Part shown: positions 12,969-58,887 of the stretch, piece by piece | Position numbering within the stretch: the first letter of the stretch is position 1 | Layout: each line of letters begins with the position of its first letter | Origin: Candidatus Obscuribacterales bacterium | GTDB taxonomy: Bacteria; Cyanobacteriota; Vampirovibrionia; Obscuribacterales; Obscuribacteraceae | Direction: 5' to 3' | NCBI GenBank assembly: GCA_965228855.1 | Contig: CBDDIJ010000005.1 | Coordinates: forward strand, 928,001-992,000 | DNA length: 64,000 nucleotides | Translations under genes and position numbers: made by a program | Notes under the pieces: generated by a model | Seen by the model: only the letters and a program-made list of their open reading frames with translations | The model's database searches: none | What the model was told of the DNA's origin: nothing

Positions 12969-15140
12969 GTGCCAAATCGATCTTCGATGGCTCAAAAAGG
13001 ATTTCTGGCCGTTCTCATACTTGTAGTATCGGAACTCTGCTTCGTATCGGTCCTCACCTTCGAATTACACTCGCTGCAAGACCAGCTTGAGAAGGAGCGC
13101 CACGCGCGTCAGATAGTAGAACATCTCAATCGATTTACGAGCGCCGCCCAGAAAACCGTTGCAGAGATTTTGAAAGCACTGCCTGTGGCGCAGCAGGTGC
13201 GTGAGGACCTTGGACTGGGGATGTTCAAAGATCAGCTTGCCCTTATGAGGCAGGAGATGCGTGTCCTGAACACACTGCTAAAAGACGATGCCAATTCGCT
13301 GCGATTATTGAGACAACTTGAGGTGGCTACGGCAGAGGAAGAGAGCTCATTCGAATTCCTGCTCAGCGTACCGCACGGGAGCATTGACCAAGCGATGCTC
13401 GCGCCCATGAACTCGTCAGGTGAAAAGCTCACGAGTGTTTGCGACAAGCTGCTACAAAAGTATCAGCGAAGAGACGACGTCACCTCAGTTACCGAGCAAT
13501 CGCTGCAACGGGTCAAGATCACGCTTGCGGTGGGGATTTTGATCGGGCTCGTGGCGAACTTGCTGGCAATTATGTTTTTCATGAGAAAGGTAGCAAGAAG
13601 AGTTTCTCTCATTGCAGACAATATGTCGCGTTTTGCACGCAAGGAAGAACTGCTGCCAGTGCAGCAAGACAACGACGAAATTGGAGATATCGATAAAGCC
13701 TTTCATCGACTTGCAGAGGCGCTCGCAACCGCAGCCGAGCAGGAGCGAATGTTGATAGAGAATGCTACCGATGTTGTTTGTTCAATTGATACGAGAGGAG
13801 TTTTCTTGACCGTAAGCCAGGCTGCCAGCCTGCAATGGGGATATTCGCCGGAAAGATTGATTGGTGAGAACATTGAGGTTTTGCTTCCAGAGGGCTTGAG
13901 TGATCAATTTGAAAAACTGAATGCGCGTATCGCTGAAGAGTCTGACTTGAGTTTTGAAGCGCGGTTAACGAGAAAAGATAATGTCGTTATAGATACTCTG
14001 TGGTCAGCGCACTGGTCCCCGTCGGATGGCTCGCTTTTTTGTTGCGTTCGGGACATAACTGAGACGAAACAGATGGACAATATTGTCGCAGCGCGCGAGA
14101 CGCAGTTGCGCACCGCGATTGAGAATATGCCGGTGGGTATCGTCACTGTAGATACGGAAGGGATGATCAAATCCGCCAACAAAATTGGACAAGCGCTTCT
14201 GAGTTTAGAGACTTCATCGCGCAGTCGAACAGTGGCAGACTTTCTAACGCCACTGGACCAGACTACGAAAGTCGAAAACGATTCGCTCCTTCACATAGAG
14301 AGTTCCAGCCCACTACGGTATGCCATTACCGATGGTAGCGAGGGCAAAAAAATATTTGTCGATATAACCTCGGTTCGCTCGCTATATAGATCGGATGAGA
14401 CGTTCATTCTGCTCGATGACGTGACTGAGCGCCATGTACTGGAAATAATGAAAACGAATCTGGTGACCCTGCTTGGCACTACGTTACACAAGCCACTCAT
14501 TGAGGTTCAAACCATCGTTAATGGTCTGATTGACAGGCAAGCATTCGACGAGTCTAGAAGAGCGCGTTTGAAACGCATTGCTAGCAACACTGTTCGTCTG
14601 CTTGGTCTAATCGAACAAATGCTCAATATAGAAAGCCTAGGTGTCGGAAAGCTGATGGGTGCGATGAGTCCCTGTCAGCTTGAAGACGTTGTTTCAGACT
14701 CGGTCGAGTCCACTAGAGATTACTCCGAACAGCAGCGAATCCAACTTGTATGGGATAAGAACGACTGTCATGCCACCGTGCTTGGTGACGCTCAGCGGCT
14801 AGTGCAAGTAGTAATAAATCTAATCAGTAACGCAATTAAGTATTCACCGGCAGATACGACGGTATCGATAACGGTGGTTGATAATTTTCCTGATCTGGAA
14901 ATTAGAATCTCCGATCAGGGAAGGGGCGTGCCAGAAGAGATGCGCGAAGCAATTTTCCAACCTTTCCTACAAACACAATCAAGCGACGGCAGGCGTGGGG
15001 CTGGAACTGGTCTCGGGCTCTCAATTTGCAAGCAGATCGTCGAAGGACACGGCGGCAGAATCGGCGTCGATGGAAAACCGGAAGGAGGGAGCGTCTTCTG
15101 GATTAAGCTACCGAGGCTCAACGGTGGAGTCTCGACATGA
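12969..15140 (+). CDS. membrane HAMP/PAS sensor histidine kinase with intact HATPase but degenerate H-box
   Basis: 2 TM, HAMP, 2 PAS; NLISNAIKYS, DQGRG, GAGTGLGL intact; H-box position reads LLGTTLHKPL instead of xSHDLRxPL. Confidence 0.9.
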   Translation: MPNRSSMAQKGFLAVLILVVSELCFVSVLTFELHSLQDQLEKERHARQIVEHLNRFTSAAQKTVAEILKALPVAQQVREDLGLGMFKDQLALMRQEMRVLNTLLKDDANSLRLLRQLEVATAEEESSFEFLLSVPHGSIDQAMLAPMNSSGEKLTSVCDKLLQKYQRRDDVTSVTEQSLQRVKITLAVGILIGLVANLLAIMFFMRKVARRVSLIADNMSRFARKEELLPVQQDNDEIGDIDKAFHRLAEALATAAEQERMLIENATDVVCSIDTRGVFLTVSQAASLQWGYSPERLIGENIEVLLPEGLSDQFEKLNARIAEESDLSFEARLTRKDNVVIDTLWSAHWSPSDGSLFCCVRDITETKQMDNIVAARETQLRTAIENMPVGIVTVDTEGMIKSANKIGQALLSLETSSRSRTVADFLTPLDQTTKVENDSLLHIESSSPLRYAITDGSEGKKIFVDITSVRSLYRSDETFILLDDVTERHVLEIMKTNLVTLLGTTLHKPLIEVQTIVNGLIDRQAFDESRRARLKRIASNTVRLLGLIEQMLNIESLGVGKLMGAMSPCQLEDVVSDSVESTRDYSEQQRIQLVWDKNDCHATVLGDAQRLVQVVINLISNAIKYSPADTTVSITVVDNFPDLEIRISDQGRGVPEEMREAIFQPFLQTQSSDGRRGAGTGLGLSICKQIVEGHGGRIGVDGKPEGGSVFWIKLPRLNGGVST

Positions 15141-17416
15141 CATCGAATGCGATACCACCTAAATCTAGCTTGATCAGAAGAGCACTGCTTCTGTTCGTTG
15201 GCATGATTACATTGCAAATCATATATGTCGCAACCGTTTTTACAATGGTCGAGCAGACCAGCTTGCAAGTGGCGGAGCAGCAGCAGGCGAGACGAGCGCT
15301 CAGCAGCATTGGACGCTTAATGCGAAGCGTGCAGGATTTGATCATCTGCATGGGCAGGGGAGAGATACTTGGCGCCGAGGGGAGCGAAGTTCAGTACCTT
15401 GGACTTCTCGAATCCTTAAATAGAGAGCTTCGCTCGTTAAAAACCACCCTCGCAAACAAATCTCAATATGCCCACACAATCGCCGAGATCGAAACGACGT
15501 GTCAAGCAATTCCCGAAATCTACGAGGAACTGCACGGAAAGAAAAATGGACACGGACACGAGCGAGGGCGAAAAAAACGGCGCAGGAAAAGGCTCCGAGA
15601 ATCACTCAGATTTCACATGGAAGACAAGGTCATGATTATGGGCAAGTCTGACATAGAGTGGTTACGCGTTTATATGTCGGCGAGCGAGGTACTTGCTCGA
15701 TTGGAAGCAATTCAGGCAGACTACAGACAAGTCGAGAAAGAAGCGCAGGAGCATCTGAAGTTTCAATCGAGCTTGCTGTTCAATGCCGCTTTGTTTATGG
15801 GTTTCGCTGCAACAGTATTGGTCGCGTTTCTTCTCTACCACATCTTTATCTCTGGAATCGTTGCGCGACTTCGCATGATTACCAATTCTCTGGATGACAT
15901 TGCCGACGGAAAGACTTTGCAAGACAGGTCATCTGTTGAAGCAGACAGCGCTTCTGATGAGGTCGGACACCTGGCGTTTGAACTGCAGTCGATGGAACGA
16001 GCTCTGCGCAACATCCGAAGTAAGGAAAAGACATTGCTCGAGAATGCCGCAAGTTGTATTTGTTCGATCGACGAACATGGCAAATTTGTGAAGGTCAGCC
16101 AGGCGAGTACGATTCTATGGGGTGTTGCTCCGGATGAATTGCTCGGCTCAGCGTTGATTGATTTGGTAGAAAAGGATGATGTTGATTATGTGGATGAGAA
16201 ACTGAATGAACTCTTTCGCACCCGGCGGCCGGTGACGTTCGAATGTCGAGTACGGCAGTCCGAAGGCGCGGGCGTTGAGTTCGCATGGACTGCCAGTCTT
16301 GCAACAGATCAGAATCTCGCTGTCTGTGTCGCACACGATGTCACTAACCGCAACGAAATACTTCGCCAGATCAAGCAAAGGGAAACTGAATTCCGAGCCA
16401 TGGTTGATTGCATGCCAATTGCGCTTATCACCTGCGATCAACTGAATGCGATTTCTTCAATCAATCCAGCCACGCAGAGGATGCTTAAATACAGCCCTCA
16501 GGATTTACTAGGGAAGAAGCTGAGTACACTTCTGTTCGGTGGCACCAAATCCGGTGTGGCTACAAATGAGCAGATGAACGAGGTGCTAGCGACGGCAGAG
16601 AAGCACACGATCGAATTGCTGGTTTCCAAAGCAGATGGAAGCCGGCTGCCCGTTGAGTTCTCCTCTAGCCAGTACGAACTGCACGATTCGCGCGTGCGCC
16701 TGGCGACTTTCAAAGACGTCTCTGCCAGATTCGAAATCGAGACGGGCAAGAAGGAACTCGTAGCCATGATCAGTCACGACTTGCGATCGCCATTGACCGC
16801 AATTCACTGCACGCTAGAGCTACTCGGGTGCGATAGGAAGAGAACTTCCGACGAGGACCTGAAGAACGCTGAGGATGTTTCACGAGCTGAAAAGATTGTC
16901 TTCTCAATAGTGAATGTTTTGAACGATTTTCTGGACCTTGAAAAATTTCAGGCCGGACTGGTTGCGCTGGAGCTGGATGAACTAGCGATATCTGAGTTGA
17001 TGAGTGAGCTACAAGAGGAACTCGGTTCCAGGGATAAACCGGTGCATTTCTCATTCGACCAAGATGCTGAGGTTTTAGAAACTCGTGTGAAAGTTGATTT
17101 TTCACGGGTGTTATTCGCGCTGTCGACAATCATTCCTGTCATCGACTGCTTTAGCGAAAAAACTCTCGAACTCGAAATTGCGCGGTCTGGCGATCAAATT
17201 CATATGGTGATCAAAAATGGCAACATCCCAGAACACATCGAGAACGCGTTCCAGTCGCCTTACGTGTTTCTTTCGGACGCGGAGCTGAATGGCGTTGTCT
17301 CAAGCGGTCTTAGTCTGAGTCTGTCTCGTGCGATCATCGGAGCCCACACAGGTTTGATGCGCATCGACCGAAAGAATCGGGATTGTCGGCTCGAAGTTTC
17401 TCTACCGATAGCTTGA
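15137..17416 (+). CDS. membrane HAMP/PAS histidine kinase-like protein with intact H-box but degenerate HATPase
   Basis: ISHDLRSPL intact; N-box, DxGxG and GxGLGL eroded (STIIPVID, KNGNIP, SSGLSL); ATGA overlap with the upstream kinase. Confidence 0.88.
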   Translation: MTSNAIPPKSSLIRRALLLFVGMITLQIIYVATVFTMVEQTSLQVAEQQQARRALSSIGRLMRSVQDLIICMGRGEILGAEGSEVQYLGLLESLNRELRSLKTTLANKSQYAHTIAEIETTCQAIPEIYEELHGKKNGHGHERGRKKRRRKRLRESLRFHMEDKVMIMGKSDIEWLRVYMSASEVLARLEAIQADYRQVEKEAQEHLKFQSSLLFNAALFMGFAATVLVAFLLYHIFISGIVARLRMITNSLDDIADGKTLQDRSSVEADSASDEVGHLAFELQSMERALRNIRSKEKTLLENAASCICSIDEHGKFVKVSQASTILWGVAPDELLGSALIDLVEKDDVDYVDEKLNELFRTRRPVTFECRVRQSEGAGVEFAWTASLATDQNLAVCVAHDVTNRNEILRQIKQRETEFRAMVDCMPIALITCDQLNAISSINPATQRMLKYSPQDLLGKKLSTLLFGGTKSGVATNEQMNEVLATAEKHTIELLVSKADGSRLPVEFSSSQYELHDSRVRLATFKDVSARFEIETGKKELVAMISHDLRSPLTAIHCTLELLGCDRKRTSDEDLKNAEDVSRAEKIVFSIVNVLNDFLDLEKFQAGLVALELDELAISELMSELQEELGSRDKPVHFSFDQDAEVLETRVKVDFSRVLFALSTIIPVIDCFSEKTLELEIARSGDQIHMVIKNGNIPEHIENAFQSPYVFLSDAELNGVVSSGLSLSLSRAIIGAHTGLMRIDRKNRDCRLEVSLPIA

Positions 17417-26805: not shown

Positions 26806-27570
26806 ATGTTTGAATCTCACGATAGTGCAAATTCACAAACCTCCGGCACCGCAGAAGATACCAGCTTATACTTGTCCGACTTCGTAATGAATACAATAAA
26901 GGAATCCGGTTCCTCGTTTAACCCTGATTTACGGACCAGCAACACACAAGAAACAGCTAATAGTAACGACTCACAATTTCTAGAGTTCGGTCCAATCCCT
27001 GGAGTCGTAGCACTTAAGCCGGGCGAAATACCGCCGTCGCCCATCGTGCGCGATCAACTGGAAGCAGAGCTTCGTCTCAACGCCATCACTCCGCCCGGCG
27101 ACGGCGAATTCGACGCGCTATCCAGAGATTTAAATCACGCCTTTGTATCAGGCGATTTGAGTGAATTTCAACGAGTTCTGCAATCTACTAATGACCTCGA
27201 TATGAGAAACAGTCTGGTAGATAAACTAGATGAGCGGCTGGACGCTCTGGAGCAGGGATTGCCGAACGAGACGCAAATGTACGCAAACGGCAACTCGATG
27301 GAGTTTTTCCCCGAGGACGAGCAGCGCGTCTACGGATTCACGATGGATCTCAACACGAATGAAACAAACGCGATACTCGCCGACGTCACAAAAGTCAACG
27401 TCAACGGCAATTGGTATCCGGCAATGGTGCCGGTTTTGGACGAAAACAAGCAGCCTGTCCAGGTAGATACTGATACAGCAAAACTATTTCAAACACTGAC
27501 CCAGAATGAAGTGCGCTCAATCGCCTCAAGCAACGAACCTCTAGGAACAATTGAGCCGGTTGAACGCTAA
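26806..27570 (+). CDS. hypothetical protein, paralog 1 of a tandem MFE(S/T) family
   Basis: Shares LNHAFVSGDL..F..VL, LD.RL..LE and LF..L...EV.SIA.SN.P with the next two ORFs. Confidence 0.85.
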   Translation: MFESHDSANSQTSGTAEDTSLYLSDFVMNTIKESGSSFNPDLRTSNTQETANSNDSQFLEFGPIPGVVALKPGEIPPSPIVRDQLEAELRLNAITPPGDGEFDALSRDLNHAFVSGDLSEFQRVLQSTNDLDMRNSLVDKLDERLDALEQGLPNETQMYANGNSMEFFPEDEQRVYGFTMDLNTNETNAILADVTKVNVNGNWYPAMVPVLDENKQPVQVDTDTAKLFQTLTQNEVRSIASSNEPLGTIEPVER

Positions 27571-27573
27571 TCT

Positions 27574-27605
27574 GGTTCAAAATTGTCATAACCATTCGAT
27601 AAATT
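27574..27605 (+). promoter_or_regulatory. conserved box + -10 promoter (copy D)
   Basis: GGTTCAAAATTGTCATAA-ccattcga-TAAATT. Confidence 0.75.
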
Positions 27606-27753
27606 AGAAGCATCGAAAAACGAGTGGCTCTCGAACGCAAGAATGCAACGAATCCATCGGCTTGATGGTCTGAACTCTCGGTTTTAAATCAGTTCTATCA
27701 CGGTCTCGAAGACGCAATCAACTTCAATCGTTTCTATTAAAGGAATAATTACT

Positions 27754-28647
27754 ATGTTTGAATCAAGCGATGCCGCAAACGGTTCGGCCAATAGCACCAC
27801 TGATAATACCAGTGCAGCGCTCTCTAGTTTCGCATTCGATTCAATGAAGGAAATGCGACCGTATCCGAAGCCGGATTTCAAGGCGATGAGCGAGCAGTCG
27901 AATCCAGTCGTCGAGTTCGGTCCAAAGGCCGTAGGTACGGTGGGAGCAGTCGGAGACAAAGGTCATGGCTGCGCATTACCCTCATTCACCGAACTTGAAC
28001 TTCCCAGCGATGCCGACCTCAACTCACCTGCAGATGCTGGCAGCGGGAAGACAGGCGATAAATCTAAGTGCGCAACACCTGAGGTCAAGGAGCCAGGTGT
28101 GAGCCACGATAATCCGAATCCGAGAAGCAGCGATGAATTAACCCAGGAAGCTCTAGACCGGATGGAAACCGAGATACGCCTCTACAATCTAACCCCCAAA
28201 GACGATTCGCCTTATGCGGAGCTGTCTAGAGAACTCAACCACGCATTCGTCTCCGGCGACCTGAAAGATTTTACAGATGTTTTGAAGAAAACCGACGACG
28301 TCCAACTTCGAGAAAAGTTAGTCAATGACCTGGATTCACGCCTTCAAAAGCTAGAGATGGATCTGCCCGGCGAAACGGAGATGAACTCATTTCTGGGAGA
28401 GTTCAATCTCTACGGCGAGGCACCGGGCAAATCGGCGGCGCTGGTTATCGACATGAGCACAACAGATGCAAAAACTGTAGACGCCAATGTTGACCGCTGG
28501 AAGCTTAACGACAATCTCTCGATTTCAACGATGAAGCCAATTGCTGACCTGGACATGAATCCGGAAGACCTGTTCCGCTCTTTGACCCGGGGTGAGGTCC
28601 ATTCGATCGCTAGAAGCAACGCGCCGATTGCCAGCCCGCTTTCCTGA
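27754..28647 (+). CDS. hypothetical protein, paralog 2 of the MFE(S/T) family
   Basis: LNHAFVSGDLKDFTDVL, LDSRLQKLE, LFRSLTRGEVHSIARSN; AAGGA RBS. Confidence 0.85.
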   Translation: MFESSDAANGSANSTTDNTSAALSSFAFDSMKEMRPYPKPDFKAMSEQSNPVVEFGPKAVGTVGAVGDKGHGCALPSFTELELPSDADLNSPADAGSGKTGDKSKCATPEVKEPGVSHDNPNPRSSDELTQEALDRMETEIRLYNLTPKDDSPYAELSRELNHAFVSGDLKDFTDVLKKTDDVQLREKLVNDLDSRLQKLEMDLPGETEMNSFLGEFNLYGEAPGKSAALVIDMSTTDAKTVDANVDRWKLNDNLSISTMKPIADLDMNPEDLFRSLTRGEVHSIARSNAPIASPLS

Positions 28648-28694
28648 AGTCACGAAACGTCGCATCACCACATTACATCACAAGGACCCAACTC

Positions 28695-29381
28695 ATGTTT
28701 GAAACACACGATGCTGTCGGCAATCAGCCTGTTAACACCACTGATAGTACCAGCTCGATTTTATCCGGCTGCGCATTCGATTCGATGAAACAACTGGCTG
28801 GCTGCGCGCGACCATCCTTTGAAAACAAAGGCCCCTCCGAAAATCCAATCTCGGAAATTGGACCAAAGGTCGCTAAAGGGGTGGCGGAGACAATCGAAGC
28901 TGGACCGACAGACTCATCGAGTTTTGACGATCAGATCAAAATGTTGAATTCGTTTATCAAGGCAAACAGCCCGGAGGACCGCAAGCTAGCAGAAAACTTG
29001 AACAGTGCGTTCATTTCCGGTAACATCAACTCGTTTGCCGATGTTTTGCAATCAGCGTCCGGCGACCCGATGGAGCTAAGAAAAGCTGTCATGGCGCTAG
29101 ATGCTCGGCTAAACCTTCTCGAAGGTTCAAAGCCGGACAACGCACTAGACATGAAAATGTTGAATGGATTTGTATTCGTGTGGCCCGAGCGCGGCGGTCT
29201 ATCGAAGGCTCTTCAAATTGATACCAGGGATGGCGAGGTAAAAGCGTTTCCTTCAGTGGTGACTCGAGAGGGGACACCCCACATAAACGTCGAGCAAGAG
29301 CTCAACCTTGATTCGGCTTCGTTGTTTAGCTCTATGGTGCGAGACGAACTTGGAACACTGCGATATCCAACTCGCCGATAG
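28695..29381 (+). CDS. hypothetical protein, paralog 3 of the MFE(S/T) family
   Basis: LNSAFISGNINSFADVL, LDARLNLLE, LFSSMVRDEL; AAGGA RBS. Confidence 0.85.
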   Translation: MFETHDAVGNQPVNTTDSTSSILSGCAFDSMKQLAGCARPSFENKGPSENPISEIGPKVAKGVAETIEAGPTDSSSFDDQIKMLNSFIKANSPEDRKLAENLNSAFISGNINSFADVLQSASGDPMELRKAVMALDARLNLLEGSKPDNALDMKMLNGFVFVWPERGGLSKALQIDTRDGEVKAFPSVVTREGTPHINVEQELNLDSASLFSSMVRDELGTLRYPTRR

Positions 29382-50484: not shown

Positions 50485-51189
50485 TCACTTTATCGCGGCG
50501 CGACCGCAGTCGGGGCAGTCGTTTCGAGGGTCCAAACCGCGAACAGTTTCGACATCTCCCCGCAAACCATCGACCTTCCACAGAACATTTCCCTGTTGAA
50601 CTCCGATGCCGGCAAGAAGTTTCACCGCTTCGAGCGCGATGATGGAACCGGCACAGGTAGCGACCGGAGAGAAGGTATCTCGTTCGACTGGTGTAATCGG
50701 AAAGTCATCGATGCCGGACACGGGCAGGGCACATCGCAAACATGCCGACTTTCCGGGCAACATGGTAAACAATTGAAACCTGAGTCCTGATGAACCTGAA
50801 TGAACTAACGGCAGCTTCAATCGCATGCACAAATCGCTTAAACGAAGTTTGGTTTGCCAATCGAGTAGACCTTCGATGACCAGGTCAATGCCTTTGAACA
50901 GGGCATCTTCAAGATCGTGCCCATTGAGCTCACGGAAGTCGACGACGGTATCAGGATTCGAATTGCTGGCAGAAACATCGCTCATTCGGCAGATTGTAAG
51001 CGAATCTCCAACGATCGTGATTCGACCGATTCCGGTCTTAATCAGCTGCACCAAAACAGTCTCGACTGTTTCTTCTCCGGCGAAAAGCAGGCAGGATGCG
51101 GACAATAAGCGAGATTGTTTCTCGCTCGTCATTCCAGGCATCGTCAATTGATGCTTGTATCGTTCAAGTTGCTCTGCCGTGAGACTGAT
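50485..51189 (-). CDS. ThiF/MoeB/HesA family protein with degenerate nucleotide-binding loop and apparent ATC start
   Basis: (I)SLTAEQLERYKHQL N-terminus; CLRC and CPDC Zn motifs; ALEAVKLLAG; GxGxxG replaced by AGEETV. Confidence 0.8.
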   Translation of the reverse strand: MSLTAEQLERYKHQLTMPGMTSEKQSRLLSASCLLFAGEETVETVLVQLIKTGIGRITIVGDSLTICRMSDVSASNSNPDTVVDFRELNGHDLEDALFKGIDLVIEGLLDWQTKLRLSDLCMRLKLPLVHSGSSGLRFQLFTMLPGKSACLRCALPVSGIDDFPITPVERDTFSPVATCAGSIIALEAVKLLAGIGVQQGNVLWKVDGLRGDVETVRGLDPRNDCPDCGRAAIK

Positions 51190-51881: not shown

Positions 51882-52922
51882 CTACGGAGAGGAAGGCGTA
51901 GAAATCTTCGCGGGGTCGTGGGTGTCCAACAACTTGTAAAAAGCTTCGCGCTCTTCATAAGTCCACGAGTACATACACGATTTCGCACCAAGTAAAACGG
52001 CGTAGGCATTGAATTTTTGCTTCAGCTTGTCATAAGCATCTACGAGTTTGAAGACAACCGCTGGGCTCCTTGATTGAGAGAAATGGAGTAACATCCTGAG
52101 ATTCTCAATTTCCCCTTCAAGGTCCCCATTTTCATCGCAGACCGCAGCCTTTACAAGATACATAGCGGGGTCGGTTTTGGGGACCAAGTGTTCCACTTTA
52201 GTCAGGACTTCGCCCGCTCGAGCCAGATCACCAGTCTGATTTCGGTTCAACAAACATATAGCAAGATTATTGTACGAAGACGTGTAAGTTGGGTGGCTGG
52301 CAATCGCTTTCTCATAGCGTGAGATAGCGCGATCTGTTTTACCCGTAAGTTGGGCTTTGAGAGCTTCGGTAAAGTCGCGTGGAACTTCCTTCGCTCTCGC
52401 CTTTACAGCCTTTCTAAGCGCGATGTGATCAAGTCCAACTTTGAGGTTGATCTTATAATCCGCTTTGAATTCTCCACCCAACTCTACAGTTCCTGTGGTG
52501 ACAGGCGGGTTCGGCACCGCAGATAGTGGCGTGTCTGTCAGTCCGCTCCCCGCGGGAGTTCTGTCAAGATTCGCATCCGCGCCATACGCTTTCCCGAAAG
52601 ACGCAAACAAAAATCCTATGGCGATGCTCGCGACTTTCGCAATTCGCCGAAGTCTCTCGCGAGCTTTCCGAAGCCCGACTGGGCAATCATCAGTTATTAC
52701 GGTGCCATCGTGGCGTCGACAAATTCGCATGCACTTCGTCAGTCCATGCTCTTGCAAAAATGCGTTCGCTTCACGACGAGTCATATCAGAGATGTTGTAG
52801 ACGTTCTTTTCGCAGCCGCCGCAAAAACGCACACGTTCGTCACCGTCCATCTTTTCCCAGTCTTTGGTGCATGGAGTGGCGAGTCTGAGAGAATCTAAAA
52901 TCGAGTTGTTCTTCGCGGTCAT
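51882..52922 (-). CDS. membrane protein with N-terminal Cys-rich domain and C-terminal TPRs
   Basis: PCTKDWEKMDGDERVRFCGGCEKNVYNISDM...C.R...DG...DC motif; TM; TPRs; start taken at MTAKNN. Confidence 0.8.
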   Translation of the reverse strand: MTAKNNSILDSLRLATPCTKDWEKMDGDERVRFCGGCEKNVYNISDMTRREANAFLQEHGLTKCMRICRRHDGTVITDDCPVGLRKARERLRRIAKVASIAIGFLFASFGKAYGADANLDRTPAGSGLTDTPLSAVPNPPVTTGTVELGGEFKADYKINLKVGLDHIALRKAVKARAKEVPRDFTEALKAQLTGKTDRAISRYEKAIASHPTYTSSYNNLAICLLNRNQTGDLARAGEVLTKVEHLVPKTDPAMYLVKAAVCDENGDLEGEIENLRMLLHFSQSRSPAVVFKLVDAYDKLKQKFNAYAVLLGAKSCMYSWTYEEREAFYKLLDTHDPAKISTPSSP

Positions 52923-53058
52923 CGTTAGGAGCTCATGACAGAAGCTTCCGATTATCCAACACGATTCGCGTTTTGGAATCACCCATTCCGGCTGTTTCAC
53001 TTTGAAATTCGCTCATAGAGCCGAAAACGCAGTGGCCGCGTCAGACCCCCAAATGGAC

Positions 53059-53081
53059 CAAAAACCCCCCTTACGGGAGGT
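53059..53081 (-). terminator. terminator of pilin-like copy 1
   Basis: Minus strand acctccc-GTAA-gggggg-ttttt. Confidence 0.75.
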
Positions 53082-53112
53082 CTCTGGCTGGCGTTGGCGG
53101 GGGAAAACTGTG

Positions 53113-53631
53113 TTAGCTGAACAGGTTGGCGTCGCGAGCCGATGCTACGAGCCAGTTGATGCAACCGGGTGTTGCCAAACCACCGGTGACACCAGCTGCG
53201 CCGAAGAGAACTTTCTTCATTGCATCGTGCGAACCAGCAGCCATGTGCATGAAGCCCATGATCATGGTAGGACCGCCCCAGGCGATGCCGAGGATTTCCA
53301 TACCGTTTGCGATGATGTTGAGCAAGGCTTCCAAGTTAGCCAAGTTGTTGACACGGACTGTTCCTGCGGTGTTGACGCCCATAATGGATGTCGCGTCGCC
53401 GCCTTGCGGTCCAATCGTACCGTTGGTGGCACCTTGAAGAATTGGTGCTGTGCCTTGTTGAATTTGTTCGGTCTGTGCGCCGGTGTTGTAGTAGGTGTTG
53501 TTTCCACCTTGTACTTCACCCATCGAGCCTTGCGATGAGAAAGCATCTCCGAACGATTGTGCAAATGCTGGTGTGGAGAGACCGACTAGTAATGCTGCTG
53601 CGACGGCCATGCGTGTGAAAGTCTTATGCAT
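53113..53631 (-). CDS. VirB2/TrbC-like pilin with Gly/Gln/Asn-rich N-terminal extension, copy 1
   Basis: Sec signal AFA|Q; two hydrophobic helices around a short KK loop (LNIIANGMEILGIAWGGPTMIMGFMHMAAGSHDAMKKVLFGAAGVTGGLATPGCINWL). The CDS is secure; the pilin assignment is inference. Confidence 0.7.
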   Translation of the reverse strand: MHKTFTRMAVAAALLVGLSTPAFAQSFGDAFSSQGSMGEVQGGNNTYYNTGAQTEQIQQGTAPILQGATNGTIGPQGGDATSIMGVNTAGTVRVNNLANLEALLNIIANGMEILGIAWGGPTMIMGFMHMAAGSHDAMKKVLFGAAGVTGGLATPGCINWLVASARDANLFS

Positions 53632-53711
53632 AGAGTTATCTCCGGCAAATTCGTTTTAGTAATTTAGTAAGTGGTTTTGAAAAAAATCGAACAGGAAGTT
53701 GTTCGGTTTAT

Positions 53712-53740
53712 AGAGTAAGGGCAACGAAGGTTGAAGTCAA
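53712..53740 (-). promoter_or_regulatory. sigma70 promoter of copy 1
   Basis: TTGACT-17-TACTCT. Confidence 0.75.
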
Positions 53741-54051
53741 GTGCAAAATTGTTATCCGCAATACATTTTTGGTCGTTCTTGACTTCATTCTTTCAAATAA
53801 TTTCGATCCTTCGAAGAACGGCTTGTTTCCAGGGCTGTGCCCTCTGTTCAGAGTCTGTAAGACGAACATTTATAGGTCGAGACTAGGACTTCCTACTGAT
53901 TGTTCGCTTTTTAGGTTCAAAACCGATTCTAGCGACCTCTCGCCCGTACTAGAAACAGAATCTGAACACCACCCGTAGTTCACATAAACCTCGACACACA
54001 TACCAAGGCTTGCGCCTAAACCTCGCTTGCCAGCCGACTTTTAGCCCATAG

Positions 54052-54078
54052 AAAAGGGAGAGACTGCCGTCTCTCCCC
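54052..54078 (-). terminator. terminator of copy 2
   Basis: gggagagac-GGCA-gtctctccc-tttt. Confidence 0.8.
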
Positions 54079-54106
54079 GTCCTGTTCAATAACGTTTCTA
54101 GTGATA

Positions 54107-54628
54107 CTAGCTGAAGAGGTTTGCGTCGCGTGCCGATGCAACGAGCCAGTTGATGCAACCAGGTGTTGCCAAACCGCCTGTGACACCAGCAGCTCCAAAC
54201 AGAACCTTTTTCATCGCATCATGCGAGCCGGCAGCCATGTGCATGAAGCCCATGATCATTGTTGGTCCACCCCATGCAATGCCGAGGATTTCCATACCGT
54301 TTGCGATGATGTTCAGCAAAGCTTCCAAGTTAGCCAGGTTGTTGACGCGAACTGTTCCTGCAGTGTTGACGCCCATGATGGATGTCGCATCTCCGCCTTG
54401 CGGTCCGATTGTACCGTTGGTTGCGCCTTGCAGCATTGGTGCTGCACCGGCATTGATCTGCTCGGTTTGTGCGCCGGTGTTGTAGTAGGTGTTGTTGCCA
54501 CCTTGTACTTCACCCATTTGTCCTTGCGAGGAGAAAGCGTCTCCGAACGATTGTGCGAAAGCTGGTGTTGCGAGTCCGAACATAACAGCTGCCATCACCG
54601 TGATTTGAGCAAACTTGTTTGTACGCAT
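54107..54628 (-). CDS. VirB2/TrbC-like pilin, copy 2
   Basis: Mature region differs from copy 1 at 5 residues, all in the N-terminal extension; GGAGG RBS. Confidence 0.7.
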   Translation of the reverse strand: MRTNKFAQITVMAAVMFGLATPAFAQSFGDAFSSQGQMGEVQGGNNTYYNTGAQTEQINAGAAPMLQGATNGTIGPQGGDATSIMGVNTAGTVRVNNLANLEALLNIIANGMEILGIAWGGPTMIMGFMHMAAGSHDAMKKVLFGAAGVTGGLATPGCINWLVASARDANLFS

Positions 54629-54715
54629 AATGAGACCCTCCCGGGCATTCGAATTTATTCGAGTTGATAGTAAAGACGTTTAAAAGAAACCAGCGCTAAA
54701 AGTGCGCAGGTAGTC

Positions 54716-54744
54716 AGTATAATGACATCGCCATCAGCGGTCAA
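54716..54744 (-). promoter_or_regulatory. sigma70 promoter of copy 2
   Basis: TTGACC-17-TATACT. Confidence 0.8.
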
Positions 54745-55127
54745 TTAACGCATTCACATAAACCCGCTAAATCATGCGGTTTTTCCCACTTAAGGCGACT
54801 GCATGAAACCTTAAATCTGAGGATTCTAGCCGATTTCAGCAAAAACAGAATTGCAAGATGCCCAATTGACAGGCTTTTGCAGCATTTCATTTTAGCGAAA
54901 CACAGCCAATTTTTCAGGACTTGGAACGAAGATATTTTGAACTCAAATCGCTTCTGTTGTGATCAAATGTTTCGAAAACCTTTTTGCTGGTCCACTCGCA
55001 AATGACTGTTCATGCCGATTTGCTCAAGTCACACTTGCTTTTGAATGCGGTCACTCGAATCAAAAACATTTCCATGTCCCTCGAAGAGGCACTGAGAATG
55101 AGCGTTTGAAAGTAAGTACGCAAAGCA

Positions 55128-55155
55128 GAAGGGGGAGGTCAAAGCCTCCCCCTTT
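55128..55155 (-). terminator. terminator of copy 3
   Basis: aagggggagg-ctttga-cctccccctt. Confidence 0.75.
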
Positions 55156-55180
55156 CAAACTTTTTGAAACCGTTAGCGTG

Positions 55181-55696
55181 TTAGCTGAACAGGTTGGCGT
55201 CGCGAGCCGATGCTACGAGCCAGTTGATGCAACCAGGTGTTGCCAATCCACCGGTGACGCCCGCTGCTCCGAAGAGTACTTTCTTCATCGCGTCATGCGA
55301 ACCAGCAGCCATGTGCATGAAGCCCATGATCATGGTCGGTCCACCCCAGGCGATACCGAGGATTTCCATACCGTTTGCGATGATGTTGAGCAAGGCTTCC
55401 AAGTTAGCCAAGTTGTTGACGCGGACTGTTCCTGCGGTGTTGACGCCCATGATGGATGTCGCATCTCCGCCTTGCGGTCCAATCGTACCGTTGGTGGCAC
55501 CTTGAAGAATCGGTGCTGTGCCTTGTTGAATTTGTTCGGTTTGAGCGCCGGTGTTGTAGTAGCTGTTGTTTCCACCTTGTACTTCACCCATCGAGCCTTG
55601 CGACGAGAACGCATCGCCGAACGATTGCGCTTGTGCTGGTGCGCTGGTGAGACCGATCAAGAGTGCTGCGGCAACGATAATTTTAGTAATACGCAT
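55181..55696 (-). CDS. VirB2/TrbC-like pilin, copy 3
   Basis: Start MRITK at 55696 with GGAGG RBS; mature region differs from copy 1 by one T>S. Confidence 0.7.
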   Translation of the reverse strand: MRITKIIVAAALLIGLTSAPAQAQSFGDAFSSQGSMGEVQGGNNSYYNTGAQTEQIQQGTAPILQGATNGTIGPQGGDATSIMGVNTAGTVRVNNLANLEALLNIIANGMEILGIAWGGPTMIMGFMHMAAGSHDAMKKVLFGAAGVTGGLATPGCINWLVASARDANLFS

Positions 55697-55795
55697 AGGG
55701 TGAAAACCTCCACGGCAGACATGCAAGTGCGATTCGGAAAAGAGAAGAATTAGCTAGTAAGTTGATGTAGCTAGTAAGTCGTTTCAAGCATGTCA

Positions 55796-55824
55796 AGTGT
55801 AAGCGAACCCCAAAAGGAAGTCAA
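55796..55824 (-). promoter_or_regulatory. sigma70 promoter of copy 3
   Basis: TTGACT-17-TACACT. Confidence 0.75.
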
Positions 55825-56208
55825 GCACTTATTTTCAGGACTTTTCCATGTCACAAAAATTCCACGAAAAAGTCACAACCGCCAGGTTGATGGGTGGAAC
55901 AACGTTTCAGGGATCGCTCACTGTTCCAGTCGAGCAAAATTGAATGGTGGCAATGTGATACCGCTCGATTTAATGAAAACTCGATGCATGATACGAGCAC
56001 TTTCGCCTAACAGATCACTTTCCGGACGGGGTAGTTACGTTCAACCAGTGCGTGCGTCCCATGATGCATGCACTGCATCTTACGTCTGTTCCTTCCGATG
56101 CGTTCAACGAATTCACCCTCATTTATATGGATGGACTCGCAGATGTGGTTTCTCAACATCTGTCACGCACGAGACATATAAAGGTAAGCCGGTCTACAAA
56201 GCACACCT

Positions 56209-56233
56209 AAAAGGAGGGGCTTGCGCCCCTCCC
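56209..56233 (-). terminator. terminator of copy 4
   Basis: ggaggggc-GCAA-gcccctcc-tttt. Confidence 0.8.
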
Positions 56234-56269
56234 GAAAGTTTTCTCTATACCGAAGTCTGCTTGAGTGAC

Positions 56270-56788
56270 TTAGCTGAAGAGGTTGGCATCGCGAGCCGAT
56301 GCTACGAGCCAGTTGATGCAACCAGGTGTTGCCAATCCACCGGTGACGCCAGCTGCTCCGAAGAGTACTTTCTTCATTGCATCGTGCGAACCAGCAGCCA
56401 TGTGCATGAAGCCCATGATCATTGTCGGTCCACCCCAAGCGATACCGAGGATTTCCATACCGTTTGCGATGATGTTCAGCAAAGCTTCCAAGTTAGCCAA
56501 GTTGTTGACACGGACTGTACCTGCGGTGTTGACGCCCATGATGGAAGTCGCATCTCCGCCTTGTGGTCCTATCGTACCGTTGGTAGCACCTTGAAGAATT
56601 GGCGCTGTGCCTTGTTGAATTTGTTCGGTTTGTGCTCCGGTGTTGTAGTAGGTGTTGTTTCCACCTTGTACTTCACCCATTGAACCTTGCGAGGAGAAAG
56701 CATCTCCGAAAGATTGTGCGTAAGCCGGTGCTCCGGTAACTCCGAGGACGACAGCAGCGGCGACGAGCATTTTAGTAAAGTGACGCAT
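56270..56788 (-). CDS. VirB2/TrbC-like pilin, copy 4
   Basis: Start MRHFTK at 56788 with GGAGG RBS; mature protein identical to copy 1 despite synonymous differences. Confidence 0.7.
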   Translation of the reverse strand: MRHFTKMLVAAAVVLGVTGAPAYAQSFGDAFSSQGSMGEVQGGNNTYYNTGAQTEQIQQGTAPILQGATNGTIGPQGGDATSIMGVNTAGTVRVNNLANLEALLNIIANGMEILGIAWGGPTMIMGFMHMAAGSHDAMKKVLFGAAGVTGGLATPGCINWLVASARDANLFS

Positions 56789-56892
56789 AAGTGAACCTCC
56801 TGCCAAATGGCAAGTGTTAGGTATGTAGTAAATAGTAAGTTCGGACAACCGGTCGCGAAAAGTGCAACCGTCTCGAAAAGTTCGATGGAATT

Positions 56893-56921
56893 AGAGTACG
56901 TTAAGAAACACCCCGAGTCAA
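56893..56921 (-). promoter_or_regulatory. sigma70 promoter of copy 4
   Basis: TTGACT-17-TACTCT. Confidence 0.75.
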
Positions 56922-57365: not shown

Positions 57366-58604
57366 CTACGTATGTGCCAGCACCCGAGCCACGCGCTGAT
57401 TGCTAGTCATCAAAGTCTCGAAGGTGGCTGCCGCCATGCCGTCCAGTGCTGTTTCGCCCAGGCGTTTCTCAAGGGAGCGCACCGCCGCTGCGACGTCGAG
57501 GTAACTTACCTGCTCTACGCCACGCATTTTTGCGATCGCTTTCGATTGAAGTTTAACGAGACCGTAAACAATAGCGAGATGGTTGAAGCCAGTAACGAGC
57601 GACAATTGACCCAAACCGGCACCAAAATAATGCTTTCCAAAAATGCGAGAAAAGAAATACCTATATATAAGATCTTCGACTTCCTTGTCGTCGTTGGACG
57701 GAAAGGGCATGCGTTCTAGTTCTTCAAAGCCGTAGCTCTTTCCTGGAACTCGAATTTTGATGCCGCCCATCAAACCACCAAAGCAGCATTGATACAAAAA
57801 CCGATAAAAGTTGAAGTCACTCTCACCGCGACCGAGCTGCTGAACCGGGAAATAGATTTTGTGCAAAGCGACCAACAATTGTCTGTCGAGTCCTTTCAAT
57901 GCGCCGGCGCCTTCCAGTTTTGCAACAACAGGCGCGACTCCCGTGCCGCGAGCCTCTGAAACAGCCACTTTCAGATAGTTAGCACCATTCACGAAACGCT
58001 GGTCCATCGAGATGCTTCTATCCTTTATATAGGAAAGCAACTTTTCCTCGTGACCGAGATATTGCTCCCATGTCATCGGAATCCCTGTCGACAACTGGAT
58101 CTGCGACCAGTTTGGTTCATGATCGGGATACATCGACTTGAACTCGGCCAGTTTACTTTCAAGATAATCTCGCTGTTCGACGAGCGCTCTACCGGAGTTG
58201 TTTACGGCTGCCATGCTGTAGAAGCTGATGGTTGCGTAGGTTCCGCTGGGCGTCTTATTGAATGAGTAGGGAAACAGCTGGCAGATTGAAGGTTTTGTTT
58301 TCGATTCGAACGTGCTGTGGATAAAACATAAATTGTTGACCAGGAAGGGGCAGTGTCCATCAGCACCTTCTTTAATTGCATGAGTGTATGGCGAGTTGGC
58401 ACTCTCGTAATCCTTCATCTCACGGAACAAGCTCTTGCCGAAAAACTTTTCCGGAAATTTGCCGGCCCAATCGATATCCGAGATGCGGAAATAATCTTCT
58501 TCCGTAAGCGGAACGGACCAACCGCCGCAGCACTTGCCGCATCCGGTACATTCGTAATTCAATCCTTCCGGGATATGTAACTTATCGGAAGCTCCCGTTG
58601 TCAT
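57366..58604 (-). CDS. YkgJ/FliB-like CxxCxxCC cysteine-cluster protein
   Basis: YECTGCGKCCGGW, CPFL...LCFIH...KPSICQLFPY; start MTTGAS at 58604 with GGAGGA RBS. Confidence 0.8.
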   Translation of the reverse strand: MTTGASDKLHIPEGLNYECTGCGKCCGGWSVPLTEEDYFRISDIDWAGKFPEKFFGKSLFREMKDYESANSPYTHAIKEGADGHCPFLVNNLCFIHSTFESKTKPSICQLFPYSFNKTPSGTYATISFYSMAAVNNSGRALVEQRDYLESKLAEFKSMYPDHEPNWSQIQLSTGIPMTWEQYLGHEEKLLSYIKDRSISMDQRFVNGANYLKVAVSEARGTGVAPVVAKLEGAGALKGLDRQLLVALHKIYFPVQQLGRGESDFNFYRFLYQCCFGGLMGGIKIRVPGKSYGFEELERMPFPSNDDKEVEDLIYRYFFSRIFGKHYFGAGLGQLSLVTGFNHLAIVYGLVKLQSKAIAKMRGVEQVSYLDVAAAVRSLEKRLGETALDGMAAATFETLMTSNQRVARVLAHT

Positions 58605-58677
58605 AAGTCCTCCAGGGACATCTACCACTTTATGCTTACCCAGAATGCATGTTTTGCCTTCGGTGCGCAAACTGTGA

Positions 58678-58780
58678 CTGAGAACGTTGCACGATAGGGT
58701 TGGCATGCGGACGCCGGCTGTGAACGTTCCACGGTCGGGTTGGCATGCGGACGCTGGCTGTGAACGTTGGCATGTCGACG
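58678..58780. repeat. 40-bp imperfect tandem repeat (2 full units + 1 internally deleted unit)
   Basis: ctgWgaacgttScacgRtMgggttggcatgcggacgcYgg at 58678 and 58718; partial unit at 58758. Confidence 0.85.
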
Positions 58781-58887
58781 AAAGCGTTTCGGATTTCGGC
58801 AAAGAACTGTAATTGTATTCTTGCGCGCAAGGGGCTTTTCGATGAGCCGGTGATAATATAGGCAAAACTTATGGGGGACCAACACTC

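Follow-up and report, generated by a model that had tools for sequence, protein, structure and literature searches.

Four near-identical genes of an Obscuribacterales bacterium encode a hairpin protein that may be the pilin of a VirD4-less VirB4 machine

The window analysed here is a stretch of 64,000 nucleotides of contig CBDDIJ010000005.1 (positions 928,001 to 992,000, forward strand; assembly GCA_965228855.1) from a Candidatus Obscuribacterales bacterium. It carries an array of four genes for a small protein that ends in a hydrophobic helical hairpin. The reading that we favour, with somewhat better than even confidence, is that this array protein is the major VirB2-like pilin of a chromosomal VirB4 machine encoded elsewhere in the genome (locus A), and that its C-terminal domain is reused as a docking or processing tag. 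The same domain is also the C-terminal tail of VIT/vWA proteins of about 600-1250 residues, in the place that a PEP-CTERM sorting signal occupies in related proteins, a role that an earlier reading of the sequence alone, which pictured a standalone pilin only, had missed. The proposed assignment names a probable major filament protein of widespread non-photosynthetic relatives of cyanobacteria, and gives a core VirD4-less VirB4 machine a candidate subunit. A literature search, in which subscription papers were poorly covered, found no description of the hairpin family, the VirB4 loci or the VIT fusions.

The array consists of four minus-strand open reading frames (ORFs) with a spacing of 994, 1074 and 1089 bp, as expected from the four same-strand genes about 1 kb apart described previously. 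Their coding features are as follows:

53113..53631, minus strand: copy 1, 172 amino acids (aa)
53560-53631, minus strand: predicted signal peptide of copy 1, followed by a variable polar linker
from 53439, minus strand: conserved polar module of copy 1
53355-53113, minus strand: helical hairpin of copy 1
54107..54628, minus strand: copy 2, 173 aa; 5 differences from copy 1, all in the first 40 mature residues
55181..55696, minus strand: copy 3 (ATG start), 171 aa; 1 difference from copy 1
56270..56788, minus strand: copy 4, 172 aa; mature region identical to that of copy 1
from 56596, minus strand: conserved polar module of copy 4
56512-56270, minus strand: helical hairpin of copy 4

Each protein starts with a predicted signal peptide of 23-25 aa (judged from the sequence). 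A polar stretch follows, variable over about 40 residues and conserved over the next 30 or so, and a hairpin of 78-80 residues completes the chain. The polar region had been described as an extension of about 70 aa rich in G, Q, N and T. The composition holds, with these residues making up 54% of the 71 that follow the signal peptide; however, about half of the extension is the conserved part of a C-terminal domain of about 110 residues. AlphaFold2, run with 85 sequences, models a two-helix hairpin (predicted local distance difference test, pLDDT, 81) and a polar part without resolved structure. Together with the hydropathy and charge pattern, the model supports a helical hairpin with a basic loop; its hydrophobic-basic-hydrophobic spacing and charges resemble those of TrbC, and a signal peptide plus two hydrophobic helices around a basic loop is the topology of VirB2/TrbC/T4SS_pilin proteins. 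The full-length model was poor (predicted template modelling score, pTM, 0.22) and the Foldseek search made from it was uninformative. A four-copy complex prediction scored 0.02 and was not used either way.

Comparison of the 148-aa mature regions reproduced exactly the 5, 1 and 0 differences from copy 1 that had been counted before, equivalent to 97-100% identity between copies. Other parts of the array have diverged: signal peptides differ, pairwise synonymous divergence (dS) is 0.26-0.68, and spacer matches never exceed 15 nt. The ratio of nonsynonymous to synonymous divergence (dN/dS) is 0-0.043, and the proposal of very strong purifying selection is thereby borne out. Synonymous codon use of the array genes, scored against a reference of six genes chosen by their motifs, falls in the 99.9-100th percentile of 3510 long ORFs, like that of the hairpin gene of locus B (see below). 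A codon bias in the top 0.1% of the genome predicts very high expression, in line with the highly expressed subunit suggested earlier. RNA runs X16 and X19 gave short diverged contigs over the array genes, mostly from relatives, and were uninformative on expression level. The view of the copies as old duplicates needs amendment: the locus is as old as the order, but copies within one genome have genome-specific residues in common. This sharing points to repeated duplication or homogenisation within genomes, not to fixed ancient paralogs. Relatives also have tandem copies of the gene.

Homologs of the array protein carry the names Obscuribacterales or Melainabacteria. The domain of about 110 residues was found in 33/33 Obscuribacterales genomes, with 1-18 matches per genome, and in none of 118 other genomes of the class; the profile search outside the order returned noise only. 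Five class genomes with E values of 0.011-0.063 were treated as noise, and so was one cyanobacterial match (E 4.6e-4, 1/300 genomes), which is a membrane protein of 198 aa encoded next to a radical-SAM-like gene. A GTDB scan confirmed the domain in 397 stretches. Among 67 loci shown, titles read Obscuribacterales, Obscuribacteraceae, Obscuribacter, Melainabacteria, Cyanobacteria or 'bacterium', and one read 'Proteobacteria bacterium'. The order occurs in biofilter, bioreactor and bioanode runs.

The genome that carries the array has the domain at the end of a fifth standalone copy and of a VIT protein of 1138 aa with multiple transmembrane (TM) helices, and in divergent form within a membrane protein of 251 aa. 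When longer homologs were searched for, 527 proteins were retrieved, and the domain ended no more than 3 residues from the C-terminus in 364/365 complete matches. Long carriers matched Pfam VIT in 14 of the 17 cases scanned. Among 150 deep-search representatives, 111 were VIT-family proteins or fragments and 39 were short, mostly with a signal peptide. Conservation along the domain depends on its context. In 155 long fusions, identity to the array protein is highest at the hairpin start (0.94), somewhat lower at the C-terminal end (0.83) and in the polar module (0.78), and falls to 0.33 in the membrane core. In the 120 closest standalone matches, a set biased to close matches, identity is 0.89-1.0 throughout, and conservation of the membrane core reaches 96%.

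Most fusions have several N-terminal membrane helices, and their bodies show weak matches to the multi-TM plus VIT type of TIGR02921, TIGR04477 and TIGR04286. The VIT proteins of the PEP-CTERM/exosortase system have this same body, and paralogous VIT genes keep a PEP-CTERM-like end directly before an exosortase gene in 9/10 loci read, including one in this genome. The two tails differ, as the PEP-CTERM signal is a single helix of about 25 aa while the array tail is a two-helix domain of 95-110 aa that also exists as a standalone gene. In a FastTree tree of 57 VIT bodies, which left out rows shorter than 560 aa and four cut-off loci, the tail requires 5 changes and is found on both a soluble VIT-vWA clade and a multi-TM clade, so that at least two VIT clades with a deep split between them carry it. 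Exosortase was considered as the general processing enzyme of the tail and rejected because it scores over the cut-off in only 17/41 genomes of the order, where it lies beside PEP-ending genes; no other processing enzyme came to light. In one VIT gene (L003:7093-10193; G000 C3:1276068-1279192) the hairpin tail is split by a frameshift, either a sequencing error or decay.

The use of the domain as a tail raises the possibility that it has nothing to do with type IV secretion systems (T4SSs) and is instead a long C-terminal signal of a new type, for sorting or anchoring. A sortase-like enzyme would cut at the stretch GxNTAGTVRVNN, and the standalone copies, as abundant proteins of the envelope, would consist of little more than the tag. 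We consider this explanation unlikely, albeit with points in its favour. Criteria for tripartite C-terminal sorting signals are given in 10.1101/2023.06.07.544157 (Haft), of which section 5 is the part used here. The domain is C-terminal, present several times per genome and marked at its start by that invariant stretch, and its homologs carry another signal or none; one VIT gene (G132) even has the array-type polar module followed by PEP-CTERM, beside an exosortase gene. However, the domain has two hydrophobic helices and its basic residues lie in the loop between them, unlike the single TM helix and terminal basic cluster of such signals. Many unrelated carriers are not seen either: long passengers are essentially all VIT-family and the remaining carriers are short. 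The patchy occurrence of exosortase also counts against a tag of this kind, and a pure tag would not require the core conservation seen in the standalone copies, the bias of that set notwithstanding.

Short pieces of the polar module without a hairpin are present in linkers of other proteins (G000 C5:128279-131581; C5:644755-645894; C2:2132830-2133411; C2:2330702-2333227). The first of these proteins contains the polar motifs of both the array domain and the locus B hairpin. Such pieces are possibly a separate recognition motif.

The sequence-only reading had noted that VirB4, VirD4 and relaxase genes are lacking in the window. Indeed, none was noticed among the window ORFs, of which only those near the array were scanned for families; nevertheless, they are encoded elsewhere in the genome. 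The search for VirB4 and VirB6 partners proposed at that time uncovered two fixed chromosomal VirB4 loci:

G000 C2, about 1.983-2.008 Mb: locus A, VirB4 region without VirD4
C3, about 3.043-3.066 Mb: locus B, with VirB4, VirD4, Replic_Relax, VirB6-like and two 138-140-aa signal-peptide hairpin genes

The VirB4/CagE profile PF03135 had no match in the source genome, and the ATPases were found with PF19044 instead. VirB4-like ATPases over the PF19044 cut-off are present in 41/41 genomes of the order, usually two per genome, so that the genomes with the array domain do possess VirB4 machines. Besides VirB4, the products of locus A are a PrgI-like protein, DUF2225, a weakly TrbI/VirB10-like protein and an OEP/DUF4352-like protein, together with two each of small 2-TM, TPR and exported proteins. 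Two multi-TM proteins are labelled VirB6-like and one protein VirB8-like, largely because of their position and topology. The locus showed no gene for VirD4, a relaxase or a hairpin protein with a signal peptide. The set made of TrbI/VirB10-like, two VirB6-like, PrgI-like, VirB4 and (by position) VirB8-like genes recurs in 11/11 further regions. VirB4-A orthologs are 72-93% identical across the order; outside it, weak matches of at most 28% identity were found in 21/118 genomes. The locus A VirB4 scores best against CD1110/TraC-type models, all under cut-off.

The hairpin protein of locus B was found in 41/41 genomes, in tandem copies with 83-97% identity. In 27/41 genomes its gene shares a contig with VirB4-B, at a distance of 7-21 kb, and in the other 14 the two are on separate contigs or were not placed. 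Like the array hairpin, it is also fused to the C-termini of larger proteins, namely VIT proteins of about 1000 aa and a family of about 227 aa, with conserved ends and a variable core. The order has two machines and, alongside them, two hairpins that are alike in being ultraconserved, multicopy, predicted to be highly expressed and employed as tails; one of these hairpins is encoded inside the locus of its machine. We infer from this arrangement that the array hairpin is probably the missing subunit of machine A.

The sequence of events that we envisage is as follows. The array protein would be exported by Sec and cleaved by signal peptidase I after its AxA motif, and the mature protein would insert into the membrane as a hairpin whose two ends face the periplasm. 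VirB4-A, PrgI and VirB6-like proteins would then extract the hairpin and polymerise it into an adhesive or contact filament, and the several separately promoted copies would supply subunit dosage. In the fusions, the conserved ends, and not the membrane core, would be recognised by the assembly platform or by a pilin-maturation enzyme standing in for exosortase. We do not expect the VIT protein to be threaded into the filament, since several membrane helices precede the tail at the N-terminus of most fusions; the pilus pathway would instead recruit or release it. The earlier suggestion of a chromosomal, non-conjugative filament thus gains a candidate machine, as locus A has neither VirD4 nor relaxase; the link to that machine comes, however, from co-distribution and not from adjacency.

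A broader formulation, which we put forward tentatively and hold to be less probable than its negation, is that the order runs two domesticated T4SS-like machines, each with a near-invariant pilin, and that both pilins double as C-terminal address tags ('pilin-CTERM'). Pilin-maturation or pilus-assembly machinery would replace exosortase to process or display VIT/vWA surface proteins. If true, a T4SS pilin domain and PEP-CTERM could take each other's place, and two systems that have been treated separately, the assembly of pili and the sorting of proteins by their C-terminus, would be linked.

Several observations weigh against a pilin of machine A. Concerning the link to the machine, the domain and VirB4 are both universal in the order and their co-occurrence counts as one event; what connects locus A with the array protein is co-distribution, from which the partnership is inferred. 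No standalone hairpin copy was present in any locus A region examined, the nearest one being about 29 kb from VirB4-A (G108), and locus A itself offers alternative pilin candidates in its two small 2-TM genes (81 and 152 aa, without signal peptide). The parallel with locus B has its own weak side: the hairpin of that locus is a putative pilin, named only by position and topology, and the two hairpins do not align significantly (HHalign probability 3.6%), with no homology detectable between their sequences. Concerning the protein itself, no pilin family cut-off was reached in Pfam searches (PF04956, PF18895). HHalign of the hairpin against TrbC scored 10.3, while shuffled sequences gave a mean of 9.9 and a maximum of 15.1; the TrbC template used is narrow, with an effective number of sequences (Neff) of 1.2. 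Foldseek and VIA returned generic coiled-coil matches only, with no pilin listed and best Z scores of 8.3-8.7. Language-model scores in the Atlas were all below 0.9, a range often reached by shuffled proteins.

The Pfam TrbC match (E 0.06-0.1) falls on the signal peptide only; T4SS_pilin matches 3/85 family members, with a best whole-protein E value of 0.0029, below the cut-off, and its profile matched 0/151 genomes. Neither sequence searches of the PDB nor tblastn against plasmids with the array protein gave a match, and a scan of viral contigs for more diverse TrbC sequences yielded 1 locus. The named Atlas clusters for the hairpin are TrbC, T4SS_pilin, DUF4134, DUF3852, DUF2976 and DUF6750, at 0.80-0.84; we take the four DUF families to be VirB2-like. 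The attribution to VirB2/TrbC/T4SS_pilin made in the sequence-only reading is therefore not sustained at the level of family membership, and the structural and profile comparison that it called for is equivocal, being negative against a narrow profile and limited to generic hairpins in Foldseek. As the cut-offs were not reached and the array genes do not lie inside a VirB3/VirB4/VirB6 cluster, we do not file the array protein as a VirB2 family member. Support for kinship comes down to the topology, the language-model neighbours and the locus B parallel. Gas-vesicle GvpA, the ATP-synthase c-subunit and Flp pilin were also considered and were rejected given the lack of a Pfam or NCBIfam match and the predicted Sec-type signal peptide.

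In a variant of the pilin hypothesis, machine B, alone or together with machine A, would assemble the array protein as a second subunit next to the hairpin of locus B. The array genes are unlinked to either locus, loci A and B have paralogous genes in common (DUF2225-like and VirB6-like), and both tails are found on one VIT superfamily, with the two polar motifs meeting in the protein mentioned above. We nonetheless hold this variant to be quite improbable, as locus B already has a multicopy hairpin gene with highly biased codon use, whereas locus A has none.

Even less probable, in our opinion, is that the array protein forms a non-filament membrane oligomer (a ring, a pore or a membrane-shaping assembly) or a peptide akin to circular bacteriocins. 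Its helices are Gly-rich, the generic fold matches include c-rings, ESCRT-III and pore-forming hairpins, and a ThiF-like gene recurs near the array. However, no Pfam or NCBIfam match to such families was obtained, and the listed neighbour families include no recurrent transporter or immunity gene. Moreover, a universal, vertically inherited, near-invariant gene at a fixed locus would be unusual for a bacteriocin.

With regard to known systems, a pilin of machine A would resemble VirB2/TrbC/T4SS_pilin (PF04956, PF18895) in having a signal peptide, a short polar segment and a basic loop flanked by two hydrophobic helices, and these families are its nearest language-model neighbours. It differs from them in having about 70 polar residues before the hairpin, in the absence of linkage to VirB4 and in the presence of its domain on long proteins. 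PMC12102498 describes chromosomal T4SSs of Patescibacteria that are vertical and mostly relaxase-less, with PrgI/VirB3, VirB4, VirB6 and tandem pilin-like genes; their VirB2 arrays, often near virB4, have a mean identity of 25% and a maximum of 54%. In contrast, the copies studied here are nearly identical in their mature regions, separately promoted and far from virB4. VirB2 pilins seem to be required by most Gram-negative T4SSs, according to PMC12857230, which also presents the Trw system of Bartonella as a T4SS without VirD4, with several pilin genes and proposed to make pili only. Trw is of the R388 type and has sequence-variable pilins, while the locus A VirB4 is nearest to the CD1110/TraC type and the candidate pilin is invariant. 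The T4SS of Vampirovibrio chlorellavorus, a member of the same class, is T-type with two of three operons on plasmids (PMC4451040), and it is a different system from loci A and B.

Other T4SS-like genes and regions were also detected. Orphan VirB6-like genes, in pairs or singly, occur away from both loci (L258:7871-15285 in G000 C3, and many other genomes), and a single genome can have as many as 33 matches. Outside the order, a third VirB4 cluster of compact form is conserved (L102-L107 and L118; class families f4 and f10), with two 2-TM, VirB4, 1-TM and 6-8-TM genes. Contig C4 of G000 (L091, L092) contains a complete-looking Trb/VirD4 region with an alphaproteobacterial-type TrbC and short, AT-rich-looking ORFs adjoining. 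Since the homologs of this TrbC are named from Alphaproteobacteria, the region is probably contamination or else a recent element, and its TrbC served only as a pilin reference.

The putative signals that flank the array genes are the following:

53712..53740, minus strand: predicted promoter-like site of copy 1, proposed pattern
54716..54744, minus strand: predicted promoter-like site of copy 2, proposed pattern and generic sigma-70 scan
55796..55824, minus strand: predicted promoter-like site of copy 3, proposed pattern and generic sigma-70 scan
56893..56921, minus strand: predicted promoter-like site of copy 4, proposed pattern
53060..53085, minus strand: terminator-like hairpin and T-run, 3' of copy 1
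54055..54078, minus strand: terminator-like hairpin, 3' of copy 2
55128..55155, minus strand: terminator-like hairpin, 3' of copy 3; the hairpin scan reported the plus strand
56209..56233, minus strand: terminator-like hairpin, 3' of copy 4

A terminator for each copy had been proposed, and a GC-rich hairpin followed by a T-run is indeed present 3' of every one of the four genes. The proposal of a promoter for each copy is upheld in part. The pattern precedes all four genes, which account for 4/6 of its matches on contigs C2, C3 and C5, but it was fitted to the array genes, so that this count is partly circular; a generic sigma-70 scan recovers 2/4 array promoters and performs overall at chance level. 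A TTACTA box, often doubled, lies 31-81 nt before the start in the 5' leaders of all four copies. Misassembly of the array, named earlier as a possible objection, was checked and rejected: contigs from the public run X2 cross all three spacers without a single difference, and in run X7, which represents a diverged strain, these spacers are covered from the gene ends and the layout is the same.

The chromosomal site of the array is conserved, with ThiF-like, CxxCxxCC/FliB-like, exonuclease and guaB genes nearby. Just upstream of it, a CxxCxxCC gene (57366-58865, minus strand) has a weak match to FliB, a flagellin lysine-N-methylase (E 8e-9, under cut-off), and its family is present in 27/96 array loci plus the window. 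This gene could modify the filament subunit or could reflect ordinary synteny. A ThiF/MoeB-like gene with a degenerate N-terminal part (50485-51147, minus strand) belongs to a family present in 36/96 array loci, the window included, and in both families of the order. Downstream of the array, a gene at 51882-53000 (minus strand) has a Cys-rich N-terminal motif, C..W..M.GD...RFC..C..NV, that is also found in a protein of about 227 aa (G000 C3:504129-504809) with the locus B hairpin as its tail. Farther away in the window, the regions 12969-17416 and 26806-29381 contain tandem PAS histidine kinases and three tandem genes of 228-297 aa with similar N-termini.

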